NCBI GenBank assembly: GCA_023379025.1
Contig: JAMCTH010000009.1
Location: 69,092 to 133,091 of the forward strand
Direction: 5' to 3'
Source: Patescibacteria group bacterium
GTDB taxonomy: Bacteria; Patescibacteriota; Microgenomatia; UBA10105; UBA927
DNA: 64,000 nucleotides
Numbering within the stretch: the stretch's first letter is position 1; every line of letters begins with the position of its first letter. A program made the translations under genes and the position numbers. The notes under the pieces were generated by a model that saw nothing but the letters and a program-made list of their open reading frames with translations, was not told the origin of the DNA and made no database searches. Shown here one piece after another: positions 23,961 through 60,514 of this stretch.

Positions 23961-24236
23961 TTCCCACGAGAACGGGAAGCAGAAACACCAGAAGATAGGA
24001 GAGGTACACGTCTGCCTTGTAGTACCCGGCCGCGCTTGTTCCCCAATGTAGGCACCGGTAAACTCGCCGTCCACCCGTAGGACAAACACGTTTCCGAAGT
24101 TCCGCCAACCCGAAGCATCGATCCACCCGACATGAGGAACCATATGGAGCTCATGGACAAGGACGGCAATTTCCTCTTCCCGAAGTCTCCTCTTTTCAAA
24201 CTCCACCTTCATGCAAGAAGTATATACCACGCAGTT

Positions 24237-24788: not shown

Positions 24789-24794
24789 AAGTAA

Positions 24795-25025
24795 CTAAAT
24801 TTTCCCTTGTTTCCTTCTATTTTTATGAATACGAACATGCTTGCCTATACTGATGACTCGTACATTTCGTTTTGTAGTTTTCCCACCTAGCGCTACTGGT
24901 TTAACATGGTGCGCTATGTTCCCCTTAGGCGCTCTTCCTTTCGGATAACCCTTTGCCTTCAAAACTCTTTTAAGTTTACCGGGGTTCCGCCCCTTCCTTA
25001 TCTGAGTCTTAGTTGGTTTTCTCAT
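24795..25025 (-). CDS. 76-aa highly basic mini-protein with HNH-like core (HH-x-P-x-ALGG...N...H..IH)
   Basis: MRKPTKTQIRKGRNPGKLKR... then IAHHVKPVALGGKTTKRNVRVISIGKHVRIH. Overlaps the hsdS stop by 17 nt and lies 6 nt from the HNH gene. Confidence 0.45.
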   Translation of the reverse strand: MRKPTKTQIRKGRNPGKLKRVLKAKGYPKGRAPKGNIAHHVKPVALGGKTTKRNVRVISIGKHVRIHKNRRKQGKI

Positions 25026-26969: not shown

Positions 26970-26971
26970 CT

Positions 26972-28912: not shown

Positions 28913-28913
28913 A

Positions 28914-29552: not shown

Positions 29553-29700
29553 AATACTGCCATACTACCCGACTAAATATTCTGGGTCAACTGGAAATCT
29601 ATATATCAAATAGCATCATTATCCATAAAACCCTGCGGGTATAAAAGCGCGATCAGAAATACCTAAATGTAAAGTGTCTCGGGCCGAAAGTTTATTCGAT

Positions 29701-31407
29701 TTATGACAATTTCCCCAAAAAATCGTTTATCTTTTGTTCTATTGCCGAACGACGGTATGCGAGAAATTCTTGAAAATTATCCATCTCCCAAAGCCGTTTA
29801 TCTGCCGGAATAAGTTGGGACGTAAGCGCTGTCTCACCGCGTTTTGGAATAATTTCATTTGTAAAGTAATCGATTGGCTCTCTGTCTAGTATGTGCCTGT
29901 TCGTTTTCCCTCCGATAAATGCAAGGTTAGCAATTTCGTTTATATCCTTGGAGTCAATGTTCCGTTTGGTTAGCTGGGCTTTAGGAAATATATGATGCCA
30001 TTGAATTTTATGCGTATCCCCTAGCGTTTTATCCGAAAGCTGCAGCCCAGTCAGCCAATCCTTTGCGCCATTTGCCTTTAGTACAAAATACAGCATGGTA
30101 AATATAGGACTAACTGTCGTCTTACCCGCAAGCTCGCCGGGTTCAAGTTCAAATCGCCGTACGTGCTCCTTGAGCTTGGCAATCAAATCATCGAGCGTAC
30201 CTCCACGAAACAATACTGCTAAATCCGCATCCAAAATAGATTCCGAAGATCCCATTCCATAGTGTCCGCGTATGTGAGCCAGGAAAAACCATCGCAACAG
30301 CTTCTTTTCCTCATCCATGCTCAATTGCTCATTGTGAAGGTACGCAAAAACGGCGATTGGAACGACAAGCATGGGTGACGATAAATATTCCAGATTGTCA
30401 ATTCCAGCGTTTTTCCGAAGGAAGTTCACGGCAAACCGCAGGCTGTTTTGAGCAATATCCCATGCTTCCGCCAACTTTTCTTTGGAATACCGACCAATGG
30501 TCTTGAATTTGCTTTGTTTTGTCGCAAACACGGTCATGAAGCGCACGAGTAACCAATCAAACACATAATCTGAATCGTCCCCAAATGTCTCAGCAAAGTC
30601 ATCCATGAGATTCATAAATCCGCGCCATTTGGCTGTGATTTGTGCTAATGCCAGATCAGAACCCCGTAGTTTCACCCCAAGTGAATTTACGCGGACAAAT
30701 ATCTCCGTTACCTCCTCATACGACATTTCGCTCTCGAGGAGTTGTATGTCATACATATATTTTTCAATATCTTTTACTTTCTGCAGCCGATCGGAGTAAC
30801 GGAGGTAGTTGGGGTCCTCAAACGAGGTGACGCCCGCGCGCTTGAGAATTTCCGCATGGTTTTTATTGAATATATCCGATACGGATACCCATGTGGGTAT
30901 GTTTTTCAGCGCCCGGGACGTAACTACAAACGTCCGTTTTTTCAGTTCCTCCTGGATATCCCGGTCATCACCGTCATTTTCCATTTGTTCGTCAATATCA
31001 GCGGTTTCCGCTTCTTCATCCACTTCCAGGACTTCTATTGGCGGCCCTTCCGGATGCTCAAGATTAAAAAGGATTTCAATGGGCCGTTTTCTGTTCCTCA
31101 CAATAATCGGTTGCCCGGTTAATATTGCGGCAAGCGAGGTGATTCTCTGTTGGCCGTCCAACAACAACCATCTGCTGAGCGGTAAATTCGGTTTCGTGGC
31201 ATCCACGGACAAGCCGTGCGTTACCACATTTTCGGACGTTTGCCACACTAAAATACTTCCGGAAGGATAATTGCGATACAGGGAATCAAGGAGGTCGCGG
31301 ACCCGAGTTGCAGTCCACACGTATTTGCGCTGCATCTCCGGAAGCTGTAGCTCATCGTTCTGAACTTTATTAACCAAATCCCGAACGGAAATATCGCTTT
31401 TCTGCAT
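29701..31407 (-). CDS. GmrSD-family type IV (modification-dependent) restriction endonuclease, DUF262-DUF1524
   Basis: 568 aa. N-terminal ParB-like DUF262 with (L)LDGQQRITSL motif; C-terminal DUF1524 His-Me finger QWHHIFPKAQL...N...N. Confidence 0.8.
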   Translation of the reverse strand: MQKSDISVRDLVNKVQNDELQLPEMQRKYVWTATRVRDLLDSLYRNYPSGSILVWQTSENVVTHGLSVDATKPNLPLSRWLLLDGQQRITSLAAILTGQPIIVRNRKRPIEILFNLEHPEGPPIEVLEVDEEAETADIDEQMENDGDDRDIQEELKKRTFVVTSRALKNIPTWVSVSDIFNKNHAEILKRAGVTSFEDPNYLRYSDRLQKVKDIEKYMYDIQLLESEMSYEEVTEIFVRVNSLGVKLRGSDLALAQITAKWRGFMNLMDDFAETFGDDSDYVFDWLLVRFMTVFATKQSKFKTIGRYSKEKLAEAWDIAQNSLRFAVNFLRKNAGIDNLEYLSSPMLVVPIAVFAYLHNEQLSMDEEKKLLRWFFLAHIRGHYGMGSSESILDADLAVLFRGGTLDDLIAKLKEHVRRFELEPGELAGKTTVSPIFTMLYFVLKANGAKDWLTGLQLSDKTLGDTHKIQWHHIFPKAQLTKRNIDSKDINEIANLAFIGGKTNRHILDREPIDYFTNEIIPKRGETALTSQLIPADKRLWEMDNFQEFLAYRRSAIEQKINDFLGKLS

Positions 31408-31470
31408 ACTTCTGCCCTATTTTACACCCACCCCGCCCTTTTCGCGATGATAACAAATTTAAAAATCTCA

Positions 31471-32658
31471 TTACCTTTTATTCACTCGGTGGCGCGCTAT
31501 GCGGTAGCTGTCATCAAATAATTCGTAATAATCGCCGTAGATATATTTTTGTCCGTATACCGCAGTTCCGAGCGGCTCAAGTATATCCAGACGCATAAGG
31601 CGTTCGATCACGTTATATGCGCCCGGCGCCGTAAAACCTGTCCATTTCATAATTTCCGCGACTCCCACAATCGGCTGGCCAAACAGTTTCCGAACGAGCC
31701 CTAAGGTTAATGCTGCAGATTTTTTGCCGAGCATTTGCATTTTTGCAAAATCGCGGTCACGAAGTGCTGTAATCCGGGCACAGGTTTCTATAGACGATTC
31801 CGCTGTTTCCGCAACCCCATCCAAAAAAAACTCCAACCATCCGTCAACATCAGATTCGTCATCGTGATATGTTTGCAACTTCTCATAATAAAGCTTGCGG
31901 TACTTTTTAAAGTAACCCGACAGATAGAGAACCGGCAATTCCAAAAGCTTCGCATGCTGCATGTACATCGCGACCAGCATACGGCCCGTACGTCCGTTTC
32001 CGTCCGTGAACGGATGAATCGTCTCAAATTGTGCATGGATGAGTCCGGCTTTCACAAGCGACGGGTACTCATCTTCGGCATGCATAAACAATTCCAAGTC
32101 TTGAAGACTTGCGACCATATCTTCTGGCGCAGGCGGCACAAAAGATGCATCCATCGGCGTCTTGCCTCCGATCCAATTTTGACTCCTCCGGAATTCACCC
32201 GGGTACGCATGCTGCGTTGCCCGTGCGCCAGTCATGAGTTTCTTATGCAGCTCCCGGATCAAACGAAGAGAAATCGGTAATATTTCCGATCTCTTCATAC
32301 CGTAATTCATTGCCTCCACGTAGTGGATAATGTCATCCACGTCCGGCTCCAAACGCGATTTTTCTTCGGTCACTGGCGCTGCCACGGCATCTTGCAGTGT
32401 TGCTCTAGTCCCTTCGATTTGGCTGGAATAGGTAGCGTCTTTTTTGACAAACATCAAAAGAAAAAAATCTTTGTCCGGCAGTAACCGGGTGATGCCGTCC
32501 AGCTTGCCGACCAAACGGATCGCACGTTCATGTTTTTTATGGAGGAACGCTCGTATAGGGAATCCGCTCTTCGGTGGGAACGGGAAGGGCGTAAACGACG
32601 AGTATCCGTCTTTCTGTGCTATATACCGACCAATGCGTGGTTTGTTTATATTGCTCAT
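31471..32658 (-). CDS. Fic family protein (AMPylase-type; Fic_N plus Fic plus C-terminal wHTH)
   Basis: 395 aa; canonical Fic motif HPFTDGNGRTGR. Confidence 0.85.
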   Translation of the reverse strand: MSNINKPRIGRYIAQKDGYSSFTPFPFPPKSGFPIRAFLHKKHERAIRLVGKLDGITRLLPDKDFFLLMFVKKDATYSSQIEGTRATLQDAVAAPVTEEKSRLEPDVDDIIHYVEAMNYGMKRSEILPISLRLIRELHKKLMTGARATQHAYPGEFRRSQNWIGGKTPMDASFVPPAPEDMVASLQDLELFMHAEDEYPSLVKAGLIHAQFETIHPFTDGNGRTGRMLVAMYMQHAKLLELPVLYLSGYFKKYRKLYYEKLQTYHDDESDVDGWLEFFLDGVAETAESSIETCARITALRDRDFAKMQMLGKKSAALTLGLVRKLFGQPIVGVAEIMKWTGFTAPGAYNVIERLMRLDILEPLGTAVYGQKYIYGDYYELFDDSYRIARHRVNKR

Positions 32659-32699
32659 ACGAATATAAACATATTATACTATTTTGTTTATATTTGCAA
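32643..32699 (-). promoter_or_regulatory. sigma70-like promoter (TTGCAA-N15-TATAAT) with three TGTTTATAT/ATATAAACA half-sites straddling the fic start codon; candidate operator
   Basis: TGTTTATAT at 32643-32651, ATATAAACA at 32663-32671, TGTTTATAT at 32685-32693. -35 TTGCAA at 32694-32699 and -10 TATAAT (minus strand) at 32673-32678. Confidence 0.4.
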
Positions 32700-33767
32700 C
32701 ACCAATGTAAACGAACCGTGTAACCCTTTTCTATCCCCGGAGTGGGGAAAAATAGTTTCTGACACATGTAATTGCACCGTCCGGAACATATTTCCGCGAC
32801 CATCCCTCTTCACTCAATTTTGTCAATTTATCGTGAATTTGGCTAAAAAATCGGCGGTATTCACGTTATTTCATCGTCATTGCGCCGTAGACCAATCCTA
32901 TGGGAATCACAAAGATGCAGAGGGGGCTACCGGTCCGCCCACGATAAACCCGACTGCTACGATTCCGTCCCATCAACCCTCTCTCCCCCGTTGACAAAAC
33001 GCGCGCAGAAATCCCGATGCTTCAGATCACTGTTTGCACCGAAAGCACCCGGAGTGGAAGAGTGGAAAACGAAACGATGTCAGAAACAAACACCATCACC
33101 CGCAAACTCGTCCGGATCCGCAAGACCATCGGACACCTCCGCATACCGCCTGCATCGTTTTATGTCATCGCCTGCAGTCACCAAACGCTCCGCATCCTGG
33201 AGCGCACCGGTGATACCACGAAACTCCACACCCATGTGCTCCGTCATATGGCGGCGCCGGAACAGATTACACGTCTCGTCCGTTCGGCCATTGCCGGAAC
33301 CGACACAAAACCCCTCGCCGCGGCCTATGCCGGACCGCGCTCCGGATTGTTCCATACGGTTGCGTCCCTCTTGTGGTTTGGGGATGACGTCATTCCGGCC
33401 GTCATCTTCCCCGAACACAAAGGTCGAGGGAACGGACACGCCCTTCAGGAACTGGTCCCGGACGGCCCGGATGTTTTCCGATACCCACGACCTCCTTCAG
33501 ACGCTTTCGCCCGACAACGAAGTAGCGGTCCGGCCGCTCGTGACCATCGGGGGCTATCGCGACACTACTTCGGAGGACGGCATGAGTACGCTTCTAAACC
33601 TCGCTTCCCGCGTCAAAAAGATACGCATACTCTTCATCAGTGCAACTCCTCGGTGAGGCGGGGTTGCCCTCATGCGGCATGCCCTCATCCCCAAGCAGGA
33701 AATTTTGAAATCACCAAAACCAAATTCTTCAACGTCCTCCAGGGAATAAACGGTCCTGACATCGTCC

Positions 33768-37525: not shown

Positions 37526-37754
37526 AGTTTTTATGCTACCGGGTTTCCCTACTCAATGCAAATACTGACTCGAAAAAAGCATTTTGCTCATCAGGGCAGA
37601 ATGATATACCCCATTTCCCATCTTATCAGCCGGCGGGAAACAAGCATACGTTCGGGGAGTGGTAATGCGGATTACCGATGCGCGAAGATGGGTATGGTAC
37701 ACTGATGAATATCATCCGTTTTTCCGTGTATCCTGTTGCAGGATACACAATCAT

Positions 37755-42219: not shown

Positions 42220-42505
42220 AGCGTCATTCTAACAAATGTTCGGGTGTCCGACAAAAAAAGTGTTGAAGTAACGGGATAGGAAAAACTTCTTTCATGCAGA
42301 CACTTTTTTGTGTATCATAAAAGTAATGATACGGGGAAACTTTATCGGTGCGGCGGTTGTTGCGATAATCTATACGGTTTATATTTTGATTAAGCCGCTT
42401 CCGTCAAAACCGCAGGAAGTAGTTGCGCTCGTCGTTCTCAATGCCCTGACCATCGTGCTCCTGTCGCAAGCTTTCAAATAAATTTTTTACCTAATAAAAA
42501 GGGGC

Positions 42506-42991
42506 TTATTTCACCGCAATACATTCCTCATCTTCTCCCGGCGGTTGCCAATATTCTACATAACTATCAAACGTCTCTCCGCTTATTTCAAATGAATCTC
42601 TAGGCGGATTTTTACTTCTGGAGATCACCCGCTCCCTCATTTTCTCCATCGAACATGCGACGTAATACAGAATCGGCTTTGCGCCTATTTCATATATTTT
42701 TTTCTTTATATCGTCTCTTTGTGACTTAACCCAAAAACCTTCGTCCAGTATCACATCTTTACCTGCTTTTAGGATTTTGAATGCTGTCTCTGTTGCGAGA
42801 TCAGTAATTTTATTGTCATAGGCTGCAAAATTCTTATCTGCGGTTATCTTGTTTCCGAAAATTTTGATTATCCATTCGTCTTTGGTTATACGTACGGCTC
42901 CTGTTTCTTCCTCCAGTTTCCTGGCAACCGTCGTCTTCCCCGAACCGATGAACCCGCAGATAAGATAAGCAATAGGCTGTTTCTTATTCAT
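42506..42991 (-). CDS. P-loop NTPase / predicted small-molecule or polynucleotide kinase (AAA_33-like)
   Basis: Walker A ICGFIGSGKTT at the N-terminus, 161 aa; low-GC DNA. Confidence 0.55.
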   Translation of the reverse strand: MNKKQPIAYLICGFIGSGKTTVARKLEEETGAVRITKDEWIIKIFGNKITADKNFAAYDNKITDLATETAFKILKAGKDVILDEGFWVKSQRDDIKKKIYEIGAKPILYYVACSMEKMRERVISRSKNPPRDSFEISGETFDSYVEYWQPPGEDEECIAVK

Positions 42992-43135
42992 GAGTCAATT
43001 ATATCAGAAGGATCGAACTGTCCAGCGAAGGGTCCTTGAGGCTAAAATAGCTAACTTCCCCTAAACGACCCATCCATCAACGAAAGAGTGGAGTTCGGAC
43101 ACAGACTTGGACTAAGAAAGATACTTGCGGAGAGC

Positions 43136-44236
43136 TTAAACTTTAAAATATGCGAAAACCTCGTTCATCGCTTCAAATCCTCGCTTTATATTCCTTTGTA
43201 GTCCTGGTGAGTTGTGGACAGTGGCCATTTTCACTCGTAATTTCAGTTTTGAGACTAAGTATCTGAGTTTGAAGATCTGAAACTTATTATTGAAATTAGT
43301 GGGGAACGTATTTGTGAGAGAATAGCCTTCTTTAAACCATGTCATTCTGGGCTCCCCAAAAAACAGGCTGTATGCAGAAAATTCCATGACGGGATCACCT
43401 GAAATGCACTCATCCCAGTCAACAATACCTGTTATATGCTTCCCATCTGACAGCGTATTCCAGTCTGCAACGTCGTTATGGATTAAAGCTGGTTCATCGC
43501 AATTGATGAGATCTGCGTTTTTATTAAGGAGTGCCAATATCTTTTCTTGCTGTGAATGAGTGATCTTATGGTCATTATCAAGGTATTCAAGGTCTTCATG
43601 AAGCGAGGCAAAAAAATGCTCACGGAGAGAATTGTACTGTCCTTCCAACGTGCCTTTGCTCTTTGCTATTTTATTGTCAAAAAAACCGAAACCCCTTGTT
43701 TTCACCCGATGAATCAGGCCGATTTGTCGACCCGTTTCCCTAATTAGTTGTTCTTCATAAGCGTATTTGATTTCACCTGAATGGGTAAAATTTCGCATTG
43801 TTTCTCCCGGCAAAGCTTCCATGATTATGAAATCAAAATCAAATTTTTTCCTGTCATTGACGATGATATACGTTGAATAAGTAAGAACCCCGTACGCTTT
43901 TGCCTTTTCTGCAGCGACTTTTTCAACCCAAAAATATCCATTTTTTACATCTTTTGGATGCATTCTGATTACTATATTTGTACCATCCGCCAATTTTGCT
44001 TTCAGAACGTTATTAACCAAACCATCGGTTATCAACTCTCCAACCTGAACTACTTTAGCATCCTGAGGCTTTTTCCCTGTTTTAATCATTCCATATTCAA
44101 TTGCTGGTACTGCATCACTCTTATCAAAACTTTCAGATCGATCTAAGAAGATTTTTTTCATGTCTTCGGCAGAAATATTACGGTTAGTCTGCCAATAAAA
44201 CATATTGTGGCGGTTTGAAAGGTCAAGAATAGGCAT
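43136..44236 (-). CDS. aminoglycoside phosphotransferase (APH) / choline-kinase-like family kinase
   Basis: Brenner motif LIHNDVADWN and downstream IVDWDE; 366 aa; low-GC DNA. Confidence 0.7.
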   Translation of the reverse strand: MPILDLSNRHNMFYWQTNRNISAEDMKKIFLDRSESFDKSDAVPAIEYGMIKTGKKPQDAKVVQVGELITDGLVNNVLKAKLADGTNIVIRMHPKDVKNGYFWVEKVAAEKAKAYGVLTYSTYIIVNDRKKFDFDFIIMEALPGETMRNFTHSGEIKYAYEEQLIRETGRQIGLIHRVKTRGFGFFDNKIAKSKGTLEGQYNSLREHFFASLHEDLEYLDNDHKITHSQQEKILALLNKNADLINCDEPALIHNDVADWNTLSDGKHITGIVDWDECISGDPVMEFSAYSLFFGEPRMTWFKEGYSLTNTFPTNFNNKFQIFKLRYLVSKLKLRVKMATVHNSPGLQRNIKRGFEAMNEVFAYFKV

Positions 44237-44457
44237 GGAGGAATTATATCAAATCCCTGAAATTGAACTTATAGATTATCTTAACTATATTTTTAGATTG
44301 TTTTCATGCCCTAGATCAAAATTTGCTCGAGAAATGGGCTTCGCAAAGCTAAGCTTTGATTTTCTATGGCGCGTTTTGACAATCTAACATTTTAGCTCGC
44401 TTACTGGGACGATTTTAGAGCGGTGGATTGCTCCCCGTTCTTGACCTAACTCGAACT

Positions 44458-44694
44458 TTAGCCATCCTTTTTCTTCCAGGGTAGTTTATCCTTTTCATGC
44501 TTTTTGGTTATTCTTCTGTCTAGATAATTAAAATATGATGGTAGTAAAAAGAAAGTAAGAACAAATCCAAGTATTACTACCCCTTTAACGTCAAGAAAAC
44601 TAGCAAAAAATACTAATAAGGTAATCGCGAAAAAAGAGAATTTCAACGGATCACTGTAAATATTATCTATGAAATTATTGAAGATACTTTTCAT
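44458..44694 (-). CDS. small membrane protein, hypothetical
   Basis: 78 aa, two hydrophobic helices. Confidence 0.35.
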   Translation of the reverse strand: MKSIFNNFIDNIYSDPLKFSFFAITLLVFFASFLDVKGVVILGFVLTFFLLPSYFNYLDRRITKKHEKDKLPWKKKDG

Positions 44695-44729
44695 AAAACT
44701 ATTAATTTGTTGCTATTTAATGTATATAA

Positions 44730-45320
44730 TTAAAGTGATGGTTTTATAACTTCACTTGGAAGTCCATACATATCCTTCGTTGATACTTCAGTACAAACCA
44801 AATCAAATATACTTGTTCCGTTGTTTTCATCCCTAACCTGATAGTACCTTCTATCTTGACCAGCATAAACTGGCTCAAATATTACTACATTACTATTTAC
44901 GCTAATATCACCTAAATGATAACCACCCTCACCTTTACTAAAGGCAATTATATTTCCACTAGTCACGTCAATTACTGCATAGCCAAAACAATCTGTACCA
45001 CACCCCCAAGAAACAAAAGTATAGTGTCCAGCGAAATTAACTCCCTTTGCAACGACCTCTTTAATTCTTGTATCAAATGTTTTTGCTTCGGGAAAATTGG
45101 AAAAATTGACCGGACTAGGACTTCCTTCAAATTTCGGCCGTGTATTTAATTGATTTTTTGCTAATTGCTCCTTACATGTCCCTGCAGTAGAAGTTTTTGT
45201 AATACTTTTACCCACACCAATATCTTTCTGTTTAACTTTTATGTAGCCTGATAAGGCTATCCCAGTCAAACATAAAACACTAATAGAAATTAATAATTTA
45301 CGATTAATTTTCCTTCTCAT
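44730..45320 (-). CDS. secreted/lipoprotein-like hypothetical protein
   Basis: N-terminal signal-like LLISISVLCLTGIALSG; Cys-containing mature domain; no known family. Confidence 0.45.
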   Translation of the reverse strand: MRRKINRKLLISISVLCLTGIALSGYIKVKQKDIGVGKSITKTSTAGTCKEQLAKNQLNTRPKFEGSPSPVNFSNFPEAKTFDTRIKEVVAKGVNFAGHYTFVSWGCGTDCFGYAVIDVTSGNIIAFSKGEGGYHLGDISVNSNVVIFEPVYAGQDRRYYQVRDENNGTSIFDLVCTEVSTKDMYGLPSEVIKPSL

Positions 45321-45513
45321 CTACTACTCCCAAAGAACTGAAAGAGCTTAAAAGTAAAAATCAGTAAATTCTGAACCAATAATTCCAATACTTAGCATTT
45401 TCAGTTTCATAGGAAATATAATAAAAAGCACCAGTAAAACCAAGCTCCGTAATCCTAGTATTAATCTGACTGAAAGTCTAGCACAAGTTATCAAGGCTTT
45501 CCAAAATCCGATT

Positions 45514-46285
45514 ACACACCCCCGGGGTGTGGGCAGACCTACCCAATGTCGTGATATAAATGTGATTCAAGAAATAGGAACCGCTGATATTCTGCCTGAT
45601 CAAACGTACTCCTTTGCAGACTCTCCGCATTCCGATAATATCCCATAAGCAATGTTTTATCCAACATCGCCATATCTGCACGTGATGCATATGACGCGAA
45701 CGAACTCCACCGATACTGAATAAGTTCGTTCTGTGAATGCAGGATGCCGGCGCTTAAGGGATTGAGGTGAATGTATCTGGCCACATGTACAAGCTGCTCA
45801 TCCGTTTCTATCCGCACCGCCTTAAACATGGATTGAAACAGAGCTCCAAACCTCTTTGTTTTGATATTAAAGTACTTCGCATACCCATTTTGAATTTGAG
45901 AAACGAATGTGGCTATTCCTCCATTTCTCAGTTGAGTAAGAAGCATATGAAAATGATTTGGCATCCAGCAAAATGCGAGTATATTCACCAACTTCAGATG
46001 CTGGTGTGCAAACTGTTCGAAGTAGTGTTGTTTTGCAGCCAAGGATAGCCTGTTATATTCAGAGAAACGTACCGGAGGATGTTCAAAGCGATAATACTCG
46101 GCAAGATCTAAAAAACGCTGGTAATCACGACTATTAATGAAAATTATCTGATTCGCGACGCTGCGATTAAAAATATGATACGTCTCTGACGTTTGACAAG
46201 GAACATAACGATATGGCATCACGCATACTATACGCCCCTCAATTAGAATATTCAGTAAGATGACCCACACCCCGGGGGTGTGGGT
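45514..46285 (-). mobile_element. IS200/RAYT-like element: HUH-Y1 transposase gene flanked by CACACCCC-GGGGTGTG hairpin palindromes
   Basis: Imperfect palindromes at 45514-45533 (ACACACCCCCGGGGTGTGGG) and 46265-46285 (CCCACACCCCGGGGGTGTGGG) bracket the transposase ORF. The element abuts the 3' end of tRNA-Asn. Confidence 0.6.
45539..46219 (-). CDS. IS200/RAYT-family tyrosine (HUH/Y1) transposase
   Basis: HUH motif MPNHFHMLL and catalytic Tyr region VARYIHLNP. Start placed at the Met after the upstream hairpin; the ORF track extends to 46315 through the palindrome. Confidence 0.7.
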   Translation of the reverse strand: MPYRYVPCQTSETYHIFNRSVANQIIFINSRDYQRFLDLAEYYRFEHPPVRFSEYNRLSLAAKQHYFEQFAHQHLKLVNILAFCWMPNHFHMLLTQLRNGGIATFVSQIQNGYAKYFNIKTKRFGALFQSMFKAVRIETDEQLVHVARYIHLNPLSAGILHSQNELIQYRWSSFASYASRADMAMLDKTLLMGYYRNAESLQRSTFDQAEYQRFLFLESHLYHDIG

Positions 46286-46322
46286 GGACACAATAAGAAG
46301 GCATAATTGTTTCAAAACTCAG

Positions 46323-46394
46323 CTCCCCCGGCTGGATTCGAACCAGCAACCTTCTTCTTAACAGGAAGCCGCTCTACCGTTGAGCTACAGGGGA
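46323..46394 (-). tRNA. tRNA-Asn(GTT)
   Basis: Manual cloverleaf: TCCCCTG-TA-GCTC-AACGGTA-GAGC-G-GCTTC-CTGTTAA-GAAGA-AGGTT-GCTGG-TTCGAAT-CCAGC-CGGGGGA-G, 72 nt. U1-A72 and G73 as in E. coli tRNA-Asn. CCA not encoded. Confidence 0.85.
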
Positions 46395-46528
46395 GCGGAG
46401 TTTTGAAACGGTATGCTCCAAACCATTTTTCTCTACTATCCAACTGGTCTAGAGAACGTTGATATTATACCATGAGAACTTTCTGTCTCAATAGCGTTAG
46501 AGTCTTCTGAAAGGTTTTGGAAAAAGTC

Positions 46529-52989: not shown

Positions 52990-53026
52990 AGTGTGTTGTC
53001 TCCTTTCAGTAACCGTAGTATAGCAC

Positions 53027-53287
53027 TTATTGTAGTGAAATATATCGTCGGTTCTCATCCTGCTTCTCTTCAGGGGTTAGAGGAATTGCCCCGGCTCGTG
53101 TATCAACAACGGGTTTATTTCCAGTTAATAAAATCGCTGTTTCTACGACCCGCGGTTTATCAGAAGAATAAATACAATCGAAGTGACCTAAGCGTCTCCT
53201 TTGTTCTGCGGCGGTAACTTTGCCTCTCTTAGTTAACTCTCCCGTCACGTCTTTTTCTGCATGTCTCAAAATGTATATTTCTTTCAT
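53027..53287 (-). pseudogene. truncated histidine-phosphatase (SixA/PGAM-like) fragment
   Basis: MKEIYILRHAEK... carries the N-terminal RHG-type motif (RHA here) but the ORF is only 86 aa and lacks the C-terminal catalytic His. The 3' end overlaps the cspA upstream region. Confidence 0.4.
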
Positions 53288-53319
53288 ATGCGGAAAACTA
53301 TTTACAAAGTTATAACTTA

Positions 53320-53964
53320 CTATAAAACCAATTTTTTAACTTCATCAAGATTAGAGACGATAAAGTCAGGATTAGTCTTTTTTAATTCTTCAAATGAATA
53401 AAATAGATCATATTCTTTTCGTGTAAATAGAACTGTTTTACTTCCAGCCGCTTTTCCCATCAATATATCACTCTTGGAATCTCCAACAACTAACGTCTCT
53501 TTGGCTGTGATTTTCAATTTTTCAATGGCTTTTAGCACGGCTTCCGGGTGAGGTTTGGGGCTGACCACATCATCGGTGCTGATAACAAAATCAAAATAGG
53601 GTTCCAATTTATATTGACCCATCATTTGATCGATATACCATCGATATGCGAAGGTGATTACAATAATTTTGGTGTTACGATCTTTTAGGAAATTCAAAAC
53701 TTCAATGGTGTCGTTGAAAAGTGGAGCATGCTTAAACAAATCTTTTACAGCTGAAAAATATGCTTGAGCAAATAATTCTGTTTTTTCCGGAATCCCGAGA
53801 CTATTACAAATAACATATTCGCTTTTGCCAAAACATTTTTGAGCTATTTCTTTTTCGTCCAACACAAAACCAACGGATCGTAGAGCTACATCGTATGCCT
53901 TAATGTAAAAAGGAAGTGTGTCGGCGAGGGTTCCGTCAAAATCAAAAAGTACTGCCTTAATCAT
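53320..53964 (-). CDS. HAD-family hydrolase (phosphoglycolate phosphatase-like)
   Basis: Motif I VLFDFDGTLADT, motif II/III lysine and GDSKSDI at the C-terminus. Confidence 0.8.
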   Translation of the reverse strand: MIKAVLFDFDGTLADTLPFYIKAYDVALRSVGFVLDEKEIAQKCFGKSEYVICNSLGIPEKTELFAQAYFSAVKDLFKHAPLFNDTIEVLNFLKDRNTKIIVITFAYRWYIDQMMGQYKLEPYFDFVISTDDVVSPKPHPEAVLKAIEKLKITAKETLVVGDSKSDILMGKAAGSKTVLFTRKEYDLFYSFEELKKTNPDFIVSNLDEVKKLVL

Positions 53965-54170
53965 AAAAAATCTTTAGGTTCTACTCCCGCTTCATCTCAG
54001 CTTCAAGCTAAAACACAATTTGAACCTGCGGTGTCTGTTTGAAAATATCCGAACGGAACTCTCTGGGCTCGGCGGGCGGAATTCCCCCCACACCCCCCTT
54101 CCGCCCGCCTCGCCTGCCCGACCGAAACTCTTGAGTGAAGGCGGGAACCGGAGCGGAAAGGACGATTTCA

Positions 54171-55616: not shown

Positions 55617-55707
55617 TGGCGGAGAGGGCGGGATTCGAACCCGCGATCACCTTGCGGCGATATGCGCCCTCCAAGCGCACGCACTAGACCAACTATGCGA
55701 CCTCTCC
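55617..55707 (-). tRNA. tRNA-Ser(GGA), CCA encoded
   Basis: GGAGAGG-TC-GCA...TGC-G-TGCGC-TTGGAGG-GCGCA- long variable arm -GCGGG-TTCGAAT-CCCGC-CCTCTCC-G-CCA; type II tRNA with a 3-bp D stem. Confidence 0.85.
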
Positions 55708-55751
55708 AATAAGCCTGATTATACCATCTCTCCGGCATCACCGATGCTATA

Positions 55752-56678
55752 ATGAGCTGTATGTCCCTCCGTACCAAAGCTCTTCTTGCCGTCTTTGCCG
55801 CGGCACTTCTCTGGTCCGGGGCAAACTCGGTCGGGAAAATCCTCGTGACCCATACTAATCCGTTCGTCATCGCGTTCTACCGCTTTACTCTGGCTTCTCT
55901 CATCATCCTTCCCTGGTTTTGGAAAGCCAAAAAGCCCAAAAACTTTGCGTTCCGCCTCTTGCCGCTTGGCATATTCAACGGCGGAAATATCCTTTTTTTC
56001 TATTCAGGCCTCGCGCGGACGACCGCAAATACCTCATCCATCCTCGGCGCGACCGTACCGATCGTGACACTACTCCTCTCCGCCCTCATCATTCACGAAA
56101 CGATCACCGGGAAACGGATTCTCGGAGTGCTCATAGGACTTCTCGGCGCCCTCTTTATCATCATTCTGCCGGAATTGAAACACGGAGCGCCAATCTATGG
56201 AAATTTCTCCGGAAACATCCTGCTTCTCGGAAGCATCCTGAGCTGGACGCTCTATATTATTTCCTCACGGAAAATACTTTCAAAAGATACTTTTGATCCA
56301 GTTCTTGCGCTTGCCATGAACTTCTTTGTGACTTCTGCCATGACCGGACTTGCCGCTCTTCTCACCCATCAGTCGTTTCTGGTGCCGGCATTTTCCGATG
56401 GGAACTATATAGTAGTCTTTCTTTATGCCGTCCTCGGTATCACTATTACGACGTTTTTCCTTTTCCAATGGGCGGTCCAGTATCTTTCGGCAACTACCGT
56501 ATCGCTTAAAGAGTATTTGCAGCTGGTCATTGGAATCGGACTCAATATCCTTATCCTCGGCGAACGGATGACCGTGGAATACGTCCTTGGCAGCATCCTG
56601 GTCGTCATCGGACTCATCGTCGCAACCGGATTGTACACGCCGCACGAGACACTCCGGAAAACCATGGGACGGCAGTAG
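55752..56678 (+). CDS. EamA/DMT family transporter
   Basis: 308 aa, 10 TM helices, duplicated EamA halves. Confidence 0.75.
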   Translation: MSCMSLRTKALLAVFAAALLWSGANSVGKILVTHTNPFVIAFYRFTLASLIILPWFWKAKKPKNFAFRLLPLGIFNGGNILFFYSGLARTTANTSSILGATVPIVTLLLSALIIHETITGKRILGVLIGLLGALFIIILPELKHGAPIYGNFSGNILLLGSILSWTLYIISSRKILSKDTFDPVLALAMNFFVTSAMTGLAALLTHQSFLVPAFSDGNYIVVFLYAVLGITITTFFLFQWAVQYLSATTVSLKEYLQLVIGIGLNILILGERMTVEYVLGSILVVIGLIVATGLYTPHETLRKTMGRQ

Positions 56679-56681
56679 GGA

Positions 56682-57254
56682 TTATTTCGCAAATTCCCTG
56701 TGCAGGGTATCACGGAGGTGCTTCCACCATTCATGAGAATCCGTTTCAGCCAGACTTCCGGCCAGTTCAACGGCTTCGGGGATCCGCAGCCGCTTTGCAT
56801 TGGCGTCCAGCCATTCCCGCGCATGCGTGTTTCCTTTTTCTTCCAGAAGCTTGAGTTCTGCCAGAAATGCGATGACGTTGGCCTCATACACAATCTTGGC
56901 CTCCCGGGTTTCCTGCTTCTCATACGTATTGAGTGTAGCGAGGAGTTCGTCATCCACTCCGGCAAAAATATCGCGGTTTGCTTTGTCCTGATCGCGCGTC
57001 ATATAGAAATGCGCGATTTTGTCAAGGTCGCCGGTCCTGGCTTCATGGAAATCATGAAATACGGCCATGGTCAGAACGGTCTCCAGATGTGCGCCGAGTT
57101 CCTTCCCTAAAAAATATGCGATGACCGCGGTCATAAACGAGTGCTCGCCCACCCCTTCTTCGTTATCCCCAAGGATCTGCCAGCCGGTCCGTTTGAGACG
57201 TTTGACGACCGCTGCCTCATAGATAATATTGGTCACGTGTTTGAGTATTTTCAT
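56682..57254 (-). CDS. HD-domain phosphohydrolase (YfbR-like 5'-deoxynucleotidase type)
   Basis: ...GEHSFMTAVIAYFL...VFHDFHEARTGDL matches the HD motif arrangement of YfbR-type nucleotidases. Confidence 0.65.
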   Translation of the reverse strand: MKILKHVTNIIYEAAVVKRLKRTGWQILGDNEEGVGEHSFMTAVIAYFLGKELGAHLETVLTMAVFHDFHEARTGDLDKIAHFYMTRDQDKANRDIFAGVDDELLATLNTYEKQETREAKIVYEANVIAFLAELKLLEEKGNTHAREWLDANAKRLRIPEAVELAGSLAETDSHEWWKHLRDTLHREFAK

Positions 57255-57283
57255 ACATTCAGGATCACGAACATTTTTCGATG

Positions 57284-57356
57284 CGCTCCCTGGCAGACTT
57301 GAACTGCCATATCAGCCTCCGGAGGGCCGCGCTCTATCCAGTTAAGCTAAGGGAGC
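57284..57356 (-). tRNA. tRNA-Arg(CCG)
   Basis: GCTCCCT-TA-GCTT-AACTGGATA-GAGC-G-CGGCC-CTCCGGA-GGCTG-ATAT-GGCAG-TTCAAGT-CTGCC-AGGGAGC-G; 73 nt; no CCA. Confidence 0.85.
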
Positions 57357-57372
57357 ATTCATCCCGGGCTCA

Positions 57373-57807
57373 TTATACCGCAGCGCGGGTTTCTGCGGCT
57401 ATTGTAGTCAGATCCCCGTCGAGGATAACGGGCTGCATGGCGTGCATTTCAGTGAGGTAATCCATTTTCGGAACAGGATACAACAGGAAAATTTTTTTAC
57501 CGAGCCAAAAGGCAATACCCATTTCGAGAAACGTGTTGCCGCCGATATACCCGGCTATTCCATTTTTTTCGTAATTAAGGACCACGATGGCATCGGCTCC
57601 CTGTATGGCCCGGAAGTGTTCACGGATAAAATCGTGCTCGATTTTAACGTTGATCTTTTCTTCGTCCGTCGTCATATACGATTCGTTCAGTTCATCGTGA
57701 TACGCGCCGGAAGGTATGACGACGAGGTGTCCGGCCTTTTCGAGTGTAGCCTTGGCCGCAATCATCTCCCTATGAAACTGCATACTGCCGCAGATCGTGA
57801 TATTCAT
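57373..57807 (-). CDS. nucleoside 2-deoxyribosyltransferase-like protein
   Basis: MNITICGSMQF...AGHLVVIPS...DAIVVLNYEKNGIAGYIGGNTFLEMGIAFWLGKKIF matches the PF05014-type fold with the conserved Glu in ...FLEMG. Start trimmed so as not to run through tRNA-Ser(CGA). AGGAG RBS upstream of the chosen ATG. Confidence 0.6.
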   Translation of the reverse strand: MNITICGSMQFHREMIAAKATLEKAGHLVVIPSGAYHDELNESYMTTDEEKINVKIEHDFIREHFRAIQGADAIVVLNYEKNGIAGYIGGNTFLEMGIAFWLGKKIFLLYPVPKMDYLTEMHAMQPVILDGDLTTIAAETRAAV

Positions 57808-57941
57808 AATTATTACTCCTCTTTCCGGTAGACAACCGTTGTGACAAATTACGCACACTACAGATAACACAACCTGCCTGCCGGAAGACCGGGATTCGTC
57901 TCGCACTCTTCGGTAGCGGCGGGATCTGCCCCGTAACAGCG

Positions 57942-58027
57942 CGGAGGGTACAGGATTCGAACCTGTGCCTCCCGAATGGGAGAACGGTTTTCGAGACCGT
58001 CGCTTTGAACCGCTCAGCCAACCCTCC
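57942..58027 (-). tRNA. tRNA-Ser(CGA)
   Basis: GGAGGGT-TG-GCT...AGC-G-ACGGT-CTCGAAA-ACCGT- long variable arm (CTCCC/GGGAG stem) -ACAGG-TTCGAAT-CCTGT-ACCCTCC-G; 86 nt. Confidence 0.8.
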
Positions 58028-58152
58028 GCGCTTGTACGGGATTCGAGATCAGCCAATAAAACCGCTCTTGCACACCTCCCGAATCAATTAAGAATTATTC
58101 CGGGTAAACCACACAGCGTTTACGCAGAAATTTCTTCCGAGAAATTATTCTG

Positions 58153-58226
58153 CGTCCCCGGTGAGAGTTGAACTCACAATCTCAGCCTCCGCAGGGCCGC
58201 GCTCTATCCAGTTAAGCTACGGGGAC
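58153..58226 (-). tRNA. tRNA-Arg(GCG) (near-duplicate of tRNA-Arg(CCG) in its 5' half)
   Basis: GTCCCCG-TA-GCTT-AACTGGATA-GAGC-G-CGGCC-CTGCGGA-GGCTG-AGATT-GTGAG-TTCAACT-CTCAC-CGGGGAC-G; 74 nt; anticodon read directly as GCG. Confidence 0.8.
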
Positions 58227-58907
58227 ATGTATACTTCCGGTCAGATGTTCTCCCAGAGCTAATGAAAAATGTACAATTTGCTCTCTGAGATAGTCATTAT
58301 TATAGCGCAGAAAGCAGATACCACCAAAATTTCGTCTGAAGGTTTTCTCTTTACTCCTATCCTTCCGATATGTTTTCATAAACTGAGTCTCAGGTATGCT
58401 AAGTAAAGCCGACCAAAATTTTTTTACCTTTGCCTCGTTGTGGTACCAATGGAGGTGAAGCCTTACTCGGAGTCTACATTCATCAATATGATAACAGTGT
58501 CTCAACAATGTTATGAATAATTTCATACGTCTCGGATCTGTATTTACAAAAACAAGTGGTCCTCTTCCCTTACATCCTTCTGACCAATACAGCATAGCGA
58601 GCATTGCTTTTTTCGTTGTGCTACCAATATCCAACGAATTGATCTCTTGCTTTGTCTCTGTGACGATTTTCTGTATCTTTTCCTCTCTCTTTCTCTTTTG
58701 TGCAAGAGCACCCAAAGGTTGAATTTCCCGTATCCATTTTTGCCTACCCATAAGAGCATATTTTCTCTCGTTGGACATCGACCTTACCCATTCATAAACT
58801 GTGCTCTTGGCGACCAACACATCATTTGCAATTTGTCCGATTGATCGTCCTTGCCTTCTTAACGTGCGGGCTCTCTGTTTCGTCCTCTCGGGAATATACC
58901 TTCTCAT
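58212..58907 (-). CDS. HTH-domain protein with possible LAGLIDADG-like endonuclease region (low-GC insertion in the tRNA cluster)
   Basis: N-terminal resolvase/IS630-type HTH (RSIGQIANDVLVAKSTVYEWVR). Downstream ...KKAMLAMLYWSEGCKG...LVFVNTD loosely resembles a LAGLIDADG motif with an acidic residue. The 3' end overlaps the 5' end of tRNA-Arg(GCG) by 15 nt. Confidence 0.4.
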   Translation of the reverse strand: MRRYIPERTKQRARTLRRQGRSIGQIANDVLVAKSTVYEWVRSMSNERKYALMGRQKWIREIQPLGALAQKRKREEKIQKIVTETKQEINSLDIGSTTKKAMLAMLYWSEGCKGRGPLVFVNTDPRRMKLFITLLRHCYHIDECRLRVRLHLHWYHNEAKVKKFWSALLSIPETQFMKTYRKDRSKEKTFRRNFGGICFLRYNNDYLREQIVHFSLALGEHLTGSIHVPVA

Positions 58908-58970
58908 ATCGAACGAGAAATATAGGGATAAATTAATTATGCTTCAATCCGATCTAATTGTTTCGAGGTA

Positions 58971-59489
58971 TTATGAAGGTTTGTCCAGAGGTATTTTTTC
59001 CGTAATCCAGGAAGCGGCGTTATCCACCCAGTTTTTTTGCGGTTCTTCCTGAAACTCTATATACCGGCCAACTATACTTTTGACTTTTTCCTTGCTTTGA
59101 CCGGCAAGAAGGATGATCTCCCGTGGTGCCCGGAATGGTCGGATGACGAGCATTGTCTGCCCCCACTGCTCCTCAAACCAGAAATCCCCCAATTCTTCCC
59201 AACGATACGTATGTGCACCGGTCATGATGCCCAGACTACTGATCCGGTGCCGTATTTCCTCCGGCGGGACGGTAGAAAGGACGTAGATAAGAAATACTAT
59301 GGACACTACGGCTGCGATAAGGACAAACTCACGCGCAAAGACAAGGATGATGAGAAGCAGCACCACGATCGCGCCGACATTGGTAAAATATTCCTTGTCG
59401 CGCCGCTTAAAAAGTCGGGATGGAGATGACCACTCGAGATAGACATCTTCTTTTTTCTTTTCGGAGTCCGGTTGTTGTTTGCCTTCCAT
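58971..59489 (-). CDS. hypothetical membrane protein (2 TM helices plus cytoplasmic domain)
   Basis: Start placed at MEGKQQ... to avoid reading through tRNA-Ser(TGA); ...VGAIVVLLLIILVFAREFVLIAAVVSIVFLIYVLS... Confidence 0.45.
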   Translation of the reverse strand: MEGKQQPDSEKKKEDVYLEWSSPSRLFKRRDKEYFTNVGAIVVLLLIILVFAREFVLIAAVVSIVFLIYVLSTVPPEEIRHRISSLGIMTGAHTYRWEELGDFWFEEQWGQTMLVIRPFRAPREIILLAGQSKEKVKSIVGRYIEFQEEPQKNWVDNAASWITEKIPLDKPS

Positions 59490-59549
59490 GTCTCCAGTAT
59501 ATACTATACAAAAACCTCGCGTGCAATTGCCGGCAGGATAAACTTGATG

Positions 59550-59636
59550 CGGAAGGGGGGAGATTCGAACTCCCGCTGGGCTTACACCCACCACGGTTTT
59601 CAAGACCGGGCCGTTAAACCGCTCCGGCACCCTTCC
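59550..59636 (-). tRNA. tRNA-Ser(TGA)
   Basis: GGAAGGG-TG-CCG...CGG-C-CCGGT-CTTGAAA-ACCGT- long variable arm -GGGAG-TTCGAAT-CTCCC-CCCTTCC-G; 87 nt. Confidence 0.8.
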
Positions 59637-59714
59637 TCAGAACGAATTAGGAAATTTTTCTGAGTAGACCCATACTGATTTACCCCGCCTATTATACCAA
59701 GCAGCACACGCTTC

Positions 59715-60350
59715 GTGGTACCATACCCCATGCCACATATGATTTTTGAGGCTGTTTTTGATATCGAAACGAAAAAGCTTTTCAGTGAAACGGAAACAGG
59801 CGACCCTGCGGAGCTCGGTGTCTCCATCGTGTCGGTATATTCAAGAAGCCTTGATGAATCACGGCGACTCATCTCGGACAATCTCCGATCGTTCTGGGAA
59901 CAGGACTTTTCCGACATGTGGGAAGTCTTCAGTAAGGCAGACCGCATCATCGGATTTAACAGCCTGAACTTTGACGTACCGGCTCTGGCCCCATACGCTC
60001 CCAATGGTTTTGAGGGATACAAGCATTTTGATCTCCTTGATGTCATAAAAAAGAAAACCGGCAGGCGCTTCAGCCTCAACTCGCTGGCGCGCGACACCCT
60101 GAGCCATGAAAAAACAGACGTCGGCACCAACGCAGTGTACTACTGGAACCAGGGGGACCACGAAAGCCTCCGGAAGCTCAGGGAATACTGTGAGGCAGAC
60201 GTCCTCATCACCCGGGACCTCTATGATTACGGGTTTACCCACGGACAACTCAAATATACGGATAAGTGGAACTACCAGAGGACCATGGATATAGATTTTT
60301 CTTACCCCAAAAAAGACTCTGAGCGCCCAAAACAGGGTTCACTCTTCTGA
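59715..60350 (+). CDS. DEDDy-type 3'-5' exonuclease domain protein
   Basis: Exo I FDIETKK, Exo II IGFNSLNFDVPAL, Exo III YCEADVLITRDLY; about 200 aa. The start may be the internal Met at 59739. Confidence 0.7.
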   Translation: MVPYPMPHMIFEAVFDIETKKLFSETETGDPAELGVSIVSVYSRSLDESRRLISDNLRSFWEQDFSDMWEVFSKADRIIGFNSLNFDVPALAPYAPNGFEGYKHFDLLDVIKKKTGRRFSLNSLARDTLSHEKTDVGTNAVYYWNQGDHESLRKLREYCEADVLITRDLYDYGFTHGQLKYTDKWNYQRTMDIDFSYPKKDSERPKQGSLF

Positions 60351-60423
60351 CATGTGACCGCCCCACCGCACACCTCCTATTCATGGTTTGTCCGAGTATT
60401 CTTTGTTATAATGCAACCTGTCA

Positions 60424-60514
60424 GGAGGAGTCGCATAGCCCGGTCCATTGCGAGGGTTTGCTAAACCCTTGAGCCGCAAGGCTCGCGTGGGTTCGAATCC
60501 CACCTCCTCCGCCA
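60424..60514 (+). tRNA. tRNA-Ser(GCT), CCA encoded
   Basis: GGAGGAG-TC-GCA...TGC-G-AGGGT-TTGCTAA-ACCCT- long variable arm -GTGGG-TTCGAAT-CCCAC-CTCCTCC-G-CCA. Confidence 0.85.

Follow-up and report, generated by a model that had tools for sequence, protein, structure and literature searches.

The 64-kb stretch analysed here (the window: 64,000 nt of contig JAMCTH010000009.1, assembly GCA_023379025.1, from a Patescibacteria group bacterium) contains a Y1 HUH transposase gene bracketed by two inverted copies of a GC-rich palindrome. We regard this locus as probably a resident unit of the RAYT/TIRYT type (tyrosine transposases associated with REPs, the repetitive extragenic palindromes, or with terminal inverted repeats); that is, a gene for a class 2 Y1 HUH single-stranded DNA (ssDNA) endonuclease/transposase located between two inverted cognate palindromes. 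Based on sequence comparisons, the corresponding clade of the candidate phyla radiation (CPR) is large, specific to Microgenomates and undescribed, but recognisable as a branch of the RAYT/TIRYT kind. The window unit shows no sign of recent transposition. Its parts are as follows.

45515-45531: palindrome A, downstream, CACACCCC-C-GGGGTGTG, with an 8-bp stem, 5-7 nt past the stop codon.
45539-46219, minus strand: Y1 HUH (RAYT/TIRYT-like) transposase gene, 226 aa, with its ATG at 46219 and its TAG stop at 45541-45539.
46220-46262, minus strand: promoter/leader interval, CTGAAT (-35), 17-nt spacer, TATAGT, 7 nt, ATG, without a Shine-Dalgarno sequence.
46263-46285: palindrome B, upstream (outer), ACCCACACCCC-G-GGGGTGTGGGT, whose stem has 11 bp; 43 nt separate it from the ATG and 36 nt from the 3' end of a tRNA-Asn gene.

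The ATG at 46219 was preferred over an upstream TTG as the gene start because the alignment of homologs begins at MPYR. An exact-protein look-up of the resulting 226-aa open reading frame (ORF) gave no match; the public call is a 250-aa protein with the upstream start (P0001). Judged from its sequence and its predicted fold, the protein is a relative of the Y1 HUH transposases. The HUH motif HFHMLL occupies residues 89-94 and the tyrosine motif YIHLNP residues 149-154, as had been proposed in a preliminary description of this DNA (there as HFH(M)LL and YxHxNP), and an alignment of 23 homologs shows no variation at residues H89, H91, Y149, N153 and P154. F128-Q129 is likewise an invariant pair, and a WSSF tail motif is located at residues 171-174. 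The Pfam profile Y1_Tnp (PF01797), which the same description had suggested as a check, matches with 29.4 bits against a cut-off of 23 (E = 9.4e-7), over profile positions 40-119 of 121 only.

A single-sequence search of the PDB with the 226-aa protein returned no match. Nevertheless, the AlphaFold2 model obtained from the 23-homolog alignment (pLDDT 90.9) has as its best PDB fold match 4ER8, the E. coli TnpA-REP bound to a REP hairpin (E = 5e-8), followed by the IS608, ISDra2 and IS200 TnpA structures at ~1e-4; the entries 2A6M, 2VJV and 2XM3 are among the matches. A profile search of PDB sequences gives the same two groups, i.e., TnpA-REP and the IS200/IS605-type TnpA. Of the earlier label "IS200/RAYT-like", the second half therefore stands, given the fold nearest to TnpA-REP and the Y---NP motif, while the first does not, as the protein has NHFH and Y---NP and not DH[VI]H and Y---Q. 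The defining features of class 2 TnpA-Y1 (RAYT-like sensu lato) are all found, namely YIHLNP, low copy number and intragenomic paralogs that are 43-63% identical. Pfam detects no DnaA_C-, HTH_23- or HTH_28-like C-terminal domain at E <= 1; the AlphaFold2 model shows three C-terminal helices (residues 189-224).

Compared as an inverted pair, palindromes A and B agree exactly over 19 nt; compared as a direct pair, they agree at 88% over 24 nt; the repeat common to both reaches 45533, i.e., palindrome A plus GG (45515-45533). That near-identical palindromes flank the gene had been reported before and is confirmed here, the earlier coordinates being 1-3 nt off at the edges. With up to 3 mismatches allowed, the hairpin motif was found at only two sites in the 64 kb, A and B themselves, against 0.22 expected. 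Both copies flank the gene, and REP-like dispersal is not seen in the window, which contains neither a second copy of the gene nor a further copy of the palindrome. Five perfect palindromes in the window have a stem of at least 8 bp with at least 5 G-C pairs, and two of them are those flanking the transposase gene. The other three (37726-37748, 13289-13305 and 15042-15060; e.g., GTGTATCCTG-TTG-CAGGATACAC) are unrelated in sequence to the Y1 hairpins. Folding as ssDNA gives -11.2 kcal/mol for B (z = -2.6) and weaker values for A (-6.7 to -7.3 kcal/mol, z = -1.3 to -1.9). The bases preceding the two hairpins are GATTA and ATGA/CCAC, without a 5' GT[AG]G foot. Rfam has no family for A or B, neither is followed by a T-run, and a terminator scan calls neither.

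A protein search returned 1,731 clusters of homologs, nearly all of 222-232 aa and 47-64% identical to the window protein, the named ones being from Gottesmanbacteria and Daviesbacteria; the RpoD encoded in the window is ~90% identical to that of Gottesmanbacteria. Membership of the window gene in this family is thus observed directly. For the comparison of loci, we took the best 80 of at least 587 loci from a scan with one genome per species; overall, more than 80 loci were compared, and they are designated by numbers preceded by L. The best 80 are from Microgenomates-type CPR bacteria (Daviesbacteria, Gottesmanbacteria, Levybacteria, Curtissbacteria, Shapirobacteria, Woesebacteria, Beckwithbacteria and CPR2). 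Scanned viral contigs contain essentially no member of the family, whose identity to plasmid "transposase" genes of other phyla (proteobacterial and firmicute) is only 26-40%. Full-text literature searches found no paper that ties such enzymes to CPR bacteria.

In most of the 80 loci, one GC-rich palindrome precedes the ATG by 38-46 nt and a second follows the stop codon at a distance of 1-36 nt. Both ends of one gene carry one and the same palindrome, while the palindrome varies from gene to gene and tracks the protein clade: TCTACACACACC-T/A-GGTGTGTGTAGA in L002, TTCCACCT-TAG/CTA-AGGTGGAA in L054, CCCATGCC-G-GGCATGGG in L004 and L023, CTATCACACACCCGGTGTGTGATAG in L052 (Beckwithbacteria, CP011210.1), and stems of 15-18 bp in L035. 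Of 76 homologous genes, 35 have a perfect GC-containing palindrome at each end, compared with 4 among 460 control ORFs taken from these loci. In an alignment of 86 ends, double-sided (compensatory) changes occur at all 10 of the 10 stem pairs, and the stem covariation score is 0.363, versus 0.134 for shuffled and at most 0.124 for slid controls; the rows of this alignment were chosen as hairpins, so that the percentage paired is partly given by construction, whereas the diversity of pair types is not. The association of hairpin and gene and the covariation of the arms are therefore direct observations, and the comparison of loci indicates that the two window palindromes belong to the transposase gene. 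The earlier view of the hairpins as the gene's own bracket is borne out by these cognate, co-varying palindromes, which recur across the family.

The palindromes are part of a larger end structure. In most clades, the ends are ~40-nt imperfect terminal inverted repeats (TIRs) composed of the outer palindrome and an inner T(T/A)GACAC-NTAAGGA module. The upstream end reads [palindrome]-NN-TAGC-TTGACAC-CTAAGGA (consensus cccACaCc.gG.gTGt..TagcTTGACACctaagga), and the downstream end, in reverse complement, reads [palindrome]-NN-TAGG-TAGACAC-ATAAGGA and continues into the stop codon (consensus ccCACaCC.GGtgTGt..TAggTAGACACaTaaGGa). The family consensus has a conserved TAG at 2 nt on the 3' side of the hairpin and no 5' GTAG. 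The inner module opens with a copy of the left arm of the hairpin (ACACC, ACAAACC or ACATGC); the match between module and arm is 4.07 of 5 for pairs from the same locus versus 3.89 +/- 0.06 for shuffled pairings, a weak difference that can serve as a hint only. The closest homologs of the window gene (L084, L107, L108 and L087) carry the same hairpin as B at the same position. In this sub-clade, the downstream end is compact: it lacks the TAGACAC module, and 6-10 nt separate the hairpin from the stop codon. In L087 (1120-1143) and L108 (~825-847; proteins P0003/P0004), the ORF runs through the downstream palindrome, and the hairpin encodes the last residues (..DPHTGGV*).

In 44 loci, the upstream TTGACA has its first base 35-36 nt ahead of the ATG. 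In 42 of these, a -10-like hexamer follows, in most cases at a spacing of 17 nt, and its end is 6-8 nt away from the ATG; a Shine-Dalgarno-like motif is present in one of the 44. From this geometry, which is read directly in the sequences, we infer that the family promoter is embedded in the upstream repeat and would give a leaderless mRNA. In the downstream repeat, TAGACA occurs in 30 loci versus TTGACA in 8, as selection against an inward antisense promoter would produce. The window copy has kept this promoter geometry. Its -35 box retains 3 of 6 matches to TTGACA, whereas L084 has CTGACA and L087, L107 and L108 have TTGACA. A consensus promoter scan found no promoter before the transposase ATG, and the same scan found a strong promoter for the tRNA-Asn at 46491-46464. 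As the leader has no Shine-Dalgarno sequence, a leaderless mRNA is also predicted for the window gene. Based on these sequence features, the gene is probably weakly expressed, or else read through from the tRNA-Asn, which is possible given that A and B are not called as terminators.

A further regularity concerns the centre of the palindrome. Between the two ends of one gene, the centre is identical in 19 loci, exactly reverse-complemented in 15 and otherwise different in 5 (39 loci), and such flip/flop centres are also seen for 3-nt loops (TAG/CTA, GGG/CCC). Independent drift would yield mostly centres of the third kind, which are few here; the ends therefore appear to be kept alike while the palindromes flip. 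The pattern implies that the two ends are homogenised and that the hairpin centre has been inverted repeatedly.

The distribution of the genes points to long residence. In nine pairs of same-genome paralogs, the proteins are 43-63% identical, and each gene has its own hairpin type. Eleven groups of loci have homologous genes on both sides (synteny groups); among the conserved sites, one paralog is located between the rpsP-trmD operon and pilMNO and another beside ftsZ-ftsA-ftsQ. Within the synteny groups, the mean identity of the Y1 proteins is 63% versus 59% for the flanking proteins (Spearman 0.50, p = 1e-4). Synteny and low copy number are thus seen directly in the sequences examined. Extra cognate hairpins are rare, ~10 in ~800 kb of family flanks (~1 per 80 kb). 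The transposase gene in the window has 41% GC versus 48.5% in its 21-kb flanks; nevertheless, Y1 genes are AT-richer than their 12-kb surroundings throughout the family (80 loci; median 6.5 GC points, up to 16), even at syntenic, apparently vertical positions, and so the AT-richness of the window copy is no argument for a recent arrival. Taken together, the diverged paralogs, the conserved sites, the neighbour-like divergence and the rarity of extra hairpins do not support a recently active insertion sequence (IS). The preliminary description had considered the unit intact or recently active: the ORF and both hairpins are indeed intact, while recent activity is not supported, in view of the lack of further copies in the 64 kb, the diverged paralogs and a -35 box decayed to 3 of 6 matches.

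Certain loci do show traces of events at the ends. Solo ends, which consist of a hairpin with the full inner T(T/A)GACAC-TAAGG module, are located 0.2-5 kb from the gene in L011 (5761), L036 (11433), L062 (11555), L065 (5109), L017 (7658) and L043 (2849), the one in L011 adjoining a tRNA-Val. In L020, at ~4867-4960 and 1.1 kb upstream of the Y1 gene, there is a gene-less mini-element of ~90 nt, similar to a miniature inverted-repeat transposable element (MITE) or a REPIN, in which the upstream hairpin, TAGATTGACACCTAAGG and the promoter region are all identical to those of the gene copy and a second hairpin comes directly after them. Additionally, partial tandem duplications are present upstream in L010, L014, L028, L032, L053, L054 and L078 and downstream in L003 and L050. 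They extend over outer flank, left arm and loop of the palindrome and go no further than the loop or just beyond it; they could stem from slippage or from abortive strand transfer.

Taking the E. coli TnpA-REP and IS608 TnpA structures as a guide, we would expect the palindromes to extrude as hairpins on ssDNA, for example on the lagging-strand template, and the enzyme to bind them through its HUH core. Nearby DNA could then be cut and rejoined by means of Tyr149 and a metal held by His89 and His91. Hairpin binding, cleavage and any biological role are thus proposed on the model of these relatives. The upstream TTGACA would also serve as the promoter's -35 box, with transcription beginning at the ATG or beside it. 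Over evolutionary time, the unit is probably low-copy, mostly vertically inherited and domesticated in the manner of RAYTs, with ends that are occasionally shed or mobilised, as the solo ends and the one gene-less mini-element suggest.

Part of this evidence could be accommodated by a fully domesticated enzyme that acts elsewhere on host ssDNA, in which case the unit never moves and its repeats are double-stranded DNA regulatory sites only: the upstream one an operator over the -35 box, the downstream one a terminator or mRNA stabiliser. The stable position of the gene and its divergence at the pace of its neighbours agree with this proposal, as do the -35 box inside the upstream repeat, the downstream TAGACA in 30 of 38 cases, which looks like selection against an antisense promoter, and the inner module as a third half-site repeating the hairpin arm (4.07/5 vs 3.89 +/- 0.06). 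However, the solo ends, the mini-element and the partial duplications of the outer arm suggest that the ends have undergone changes at the DNA level, and the palindrome centres (19 identical, 15 reverse-complemented, 5 other) imply repeated hairpin-mediated inversion and homogenisation and not simple operator conservation. The catalytic residues, moreover, are invariant. We consider this explanation unlikely, although it is the alternative to be taken most seriously.

The immediate surroundings of the unit comprise two further features.

46322-46394, minus strand: tRNA-Asn(GTT), on the same strand as the transposase gene and upstream of it.
42300-45514, minus strand: low-GC accessory islet adjoining the downstream hairpin, given as context and not demonstrably part of the unit.

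The preliminary description called the unit inserted against the tRNA-Asn, which reads as a recent event. In L084 (64% identical), a tRNA-Asn identical at 70 of 73 positions (5300-5374) adjoins the upstream hairpin in divergent orientation, with its promoter TGATATAAT ~45 nt outside the hairpin, and locus L108 (61% identical) starts inside the same divergent tRNA-Asn (1-24). Relics are found in two further loci: L087 (~300-360) retains the promoter TGATATAAT and the first 11 nt of the tRNA-Asn, and L107 (~1440-1470) a remnant of the tRNA promoter only. The window tRNA-Asn is co-oriented with the gene, while in L084 and L108 the orientation is opposite. As a tRNA-Asn or its relic is located beside the upstream hairpin in homologs that are 60-64% identical, the comparison indicates that the linkage is ancestral to the window sub-clade and not a recent insertion; the earlier claim must be given up in this respect. 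A preference for tRNA genes across the family is not supported, with 7 of 81 loci within 250 nt of a tRNA and differing tRNA identities.

Beyond the tRNA-Asn, the window encodes a 362-aa RpoD-like sigma factor. In relatives with a 91%-identical RpoD, NUDIX-dnaG-rpoD is kept and unrelated genes follow right after rpoD; the tRNA-Asn, the Y1 gene and the islet are absent at this place. The region is variable, and a search there for an empty site gave none that could be cleanly defined. The comparison of tRNA-Asn flanks that had been suggested earlier thus gives a divided answer, with the link kept in the sub-clade and absent from these relatives. A perfect 12-bp inverted repeat of leader and trailer (46309-46320, GTTTCAAAACTC; 46398-46409, GAGTTTTGAAAC) brackets the tRNA-Asn and prolongs its acceptor stem. 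It is absent from the other six tRNAs of the window and has a weaker equivalent at the tRNA-Asn of L084; it could be a processing helix, or a scar or mediator of an event that inverted the tRNA with respect to the Y1 gene. In SRR10278331, two Logan contigs (61,079 and 7,693 nt) end inside or just past the tRNA-Asn, at window ~46365-46406. These breaks could reflect strain variation but are equally explained by the tRNA as a shared repeat, and were not used as evidence. A cluster of six tRNA genes (Ser x4, Arg x2) is located at 55617-60514.

According to gene calls and Pfam, the islet encodes an APH-family kinase, a Zeta-toxin/AAA-like kinase and two proteins, of 196 and 78 aa, without an assigned function. 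The unit is indeed at its boundary, as had been stated, forming the right edge of a region with a GC of 0.34-0.43 across 42-46 kb versus ~0.55 in the surrounding sequence. A classical tRNA-integrated island was considered and rejected, because no integrase is encoded in the islet and the tRNA-Asn 3' end is not repeated, over 12 nt or more, within 42-47 kb. Further low-GC stretches are located at 24000-33000 (GC 0.33-0.48) and 53000-54000 (0.37).

Several observations weigh against a resident RAYT/TIRYT-type unit. The protein scores 51.1 bits with NCBIfam NF047646 (REP_Tyr_transpos, the RAYT equivalog), under the cut-off of 80. The 5' GT[AG]G foot of the E. coli TnpA-REP system is absent, with TAG 2 nt 3' of the hairpin instead, and the hundreds of dispersed copies known for REPs contrast with the two in 64 kb and the ~1 extra per 80 kb of family flanks. 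A few syntenic pairs are discordant, for instance with a Y1 identity of 79% versus 50% for the flanks in L051/L059 and of 56% versus 72% in L059/L070, which fits occasional replacement or site-specific re-insertion. The window sub-clade (window, L084, L087, L107 and L108) has no common neighbours except the tRNA-Asn, and this branch may thus be more mobile than the syntenic ones. Finally, a metagenome scan with the window 19-mer gave 15 contigs, two of which have a Y1 gene between two hairpins and three of which, of high GC, look like chance or terminator matches. About eight low-GC contigs (L089/L100, L090/L094/L098, L091, L093, L096, L097 and L101) carry a solitary exact 19-mer and no Y1 gene on the contig, so that some dispersal of the hairpin is possible; L096 shares the 5-nt flank CGATT with window hairpin A.

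These points bear on the possibility of an autonomous IS200-group IS of ~770 bp (45514-46285) that recently transposed beside the tRNA-Asn by "peel-and-paste". The size, the single tnpA-like gene and the subterminal hairpins resemble IS200, the sub-clade members are in different contexts, solo ends and a mini-element exist in the family, and the gene has 41% GC compared with 48.5% in its 21-kb flanks and ~55% in the core stretches of the window. Against this, the low GC is the family-wide trait described above (median -6.5 points), the motifs are those of class 2 (NHFH, Y---NP) and not DH[VI]H and Y---Q, the fold is nearer to TnpA-REP, and there is neither a second copy in the window nor a tnpB gene. 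The paralogs are 43-63% identical, versus ~99% for IS200 copies (Quentin et al. 2018, PMC6006769), many orthologs are at fixed core-genome loci where they diverge like their neighbours, and the linkage to the tRNA-Asn is older than the split of the 60-64%-identical homologs. A recent IS200-type insertion is accordingly quite improbable.

More speculative, and in our estimate very improbable, is the idea that the CPR clade represents a distinct, undescribed type of domesticated HUH system acting on its own "flip-flop" palindromes, somewhat as parvoviral Rep acts on inverted terminal repeats, with the downstream hairpin as a hot spot for the capture or exchange of foreign AT-rich accessory genes. 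This idea draws on the upstream end being anchored to the tRNA-Asn or its relic in 5 of 5 sub-clade members while the DNA past the downstream hairpin differs, with different genes in each of the five loci; the equal mix of identical and inverted centres would be the footprint of repeated hairpin processing if it were true. As for the palindromes being ordinary transcription signals, B a terminator or processing site of the tRNA-Asn and A the terminator of the Y1 gene, their positions (36 nt past the tRNA 3' end and 5-7 nt past the stop codon), their GC-rich stems and a T-run after the hairpin in two high-GC metagenome contigs (L095 and L099) speak for it, but it is scarcely credible and already largely refuted by the comparative data, as A and B lack a T-run, are negative in the terminator scan and, unlike unrelated terminators, share 19 nt exactly, while gene and cognate hairpins are paired in more than 80 loci whatever the neighbours, the hairpin type tracks the protein clade, and such palindromes are rare at control genes of the same loci.

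We therefore compare the locus, read as a resident unit, with the known systems. IS200, IS608 and ISDra2 (IS200/IS605 family, subclass 1.1) share with it the HUH/Y1 fold, subterminal hairpins and a unit of ~0.7 kb, and in IS200 an outer hairpin is likewise located upstream of the promoter. However, IS200 has DH[VI]H, Y[IV]ENQ (Y---Q) and a core-only protein of ~150 aa, whereas the window protein has PNHFH, YIHLNP and 226 aa. The left-end and right-end hairpins of IS200/IS608 are on the same strand, in contrast to the inverted copies of one palindrome found here, and the near-identical multi-copy insertions of IS200 (~99%) differ from a single window copy without tnpB and many syntenic loci. 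Such genes should not be annotated as IS200 insertions, nor taken as markers of recent mobility.

The E. coli TnpA-REP (RayT/YafM, REPtron, PDB 4ER8, subclass 2.2) is the best structural match and shares the Y---NP motif. In that system, too, cognate palindromes in inverted orientation flank the gene, protein and hairpins co-evolve, and the gene is low-copy and vertically inherited. Apart from the missing foot and the scarcity of dispersed copies noted above, it differs in that the CPR protein is ~60 aa longer and under the NCBIfam equivalog cut-off. RAYT/TIRYT enzymes belong to the small number of transposases that bacteria have clearly retained over millions of years. CPR genomes are under pressure at every kilobase, yet the gene, its cognate hairpins and the repeat-embedded promoter have been kept at core-genome positions. 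A protein and a ~20-nt hairpin make a compact, sequence-defined system for testing the role of domesticated HUH enzymes.

The closest counterpart is TnpA-Y1 subclass 2.1 (Quentin et al. 2018, PMC6006769), which equals the Group 1 RAYTs (Bertels et al. 2017, PMC5581495) and largely the TIRYT/TIRtron (Di Nocera et al. 2013, PMC3733652). These are low-copy genes with diverged paralogs, fixed-distance TIRs, some of them self-complementary, and few dispersed copies (PMC6006769, PMC5581495, PMC3733652). The motifs NH[YF]H, FQ in place of W[EQ], Y[IV]HLNP and the tail SS (WSSF here) are the signature given in Table 1 of Quentin et al. 2018 (PMC6006769), and our assignment to subclass 2.1 is one by motif comparison alone and not by a tree with reference 2.1 sequences. 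The length (226 aa versus a median of 238) and the number of copies per genome (~1-3, diverged, with a published mean identity of 49% compared with 43-63% in our set) agree, as do, for Group 1/TIRYT, the location of the gene between fixed-distance TIRs, some self-complementary, and, for Group 1, the few flank-derived repeats (~12 occurrences of flanking 16-mers in Group 1). The differences are that the CPR proteins are only 26-40% identical to the proteobacterial/firmicute plasmid-borne relatives found; that a C-terminal DnaA_C/HTH-like domain is present there while none is detected by Pfam here; that Quentin et al. (PMC6006769) found no hairpins beside 2.1 genes, whereas a perfect palindrome is the core of each end here; and that the motif GGGGWSAS, reported for many TIRYT TIRs, is not in the CPR family consensus, although the window hairpin GGGGTGTG matches it at 7 of 8 positions. 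The subclass 2.1/TIRYT surveys did not extend to the host phylum (CPR/Microgenomates). Group 1/subclass 2.1 is the largest and least understood RAYT group, and the present locus reveals a very large clade of such genes in the reduced genomes of CPR bacteria.

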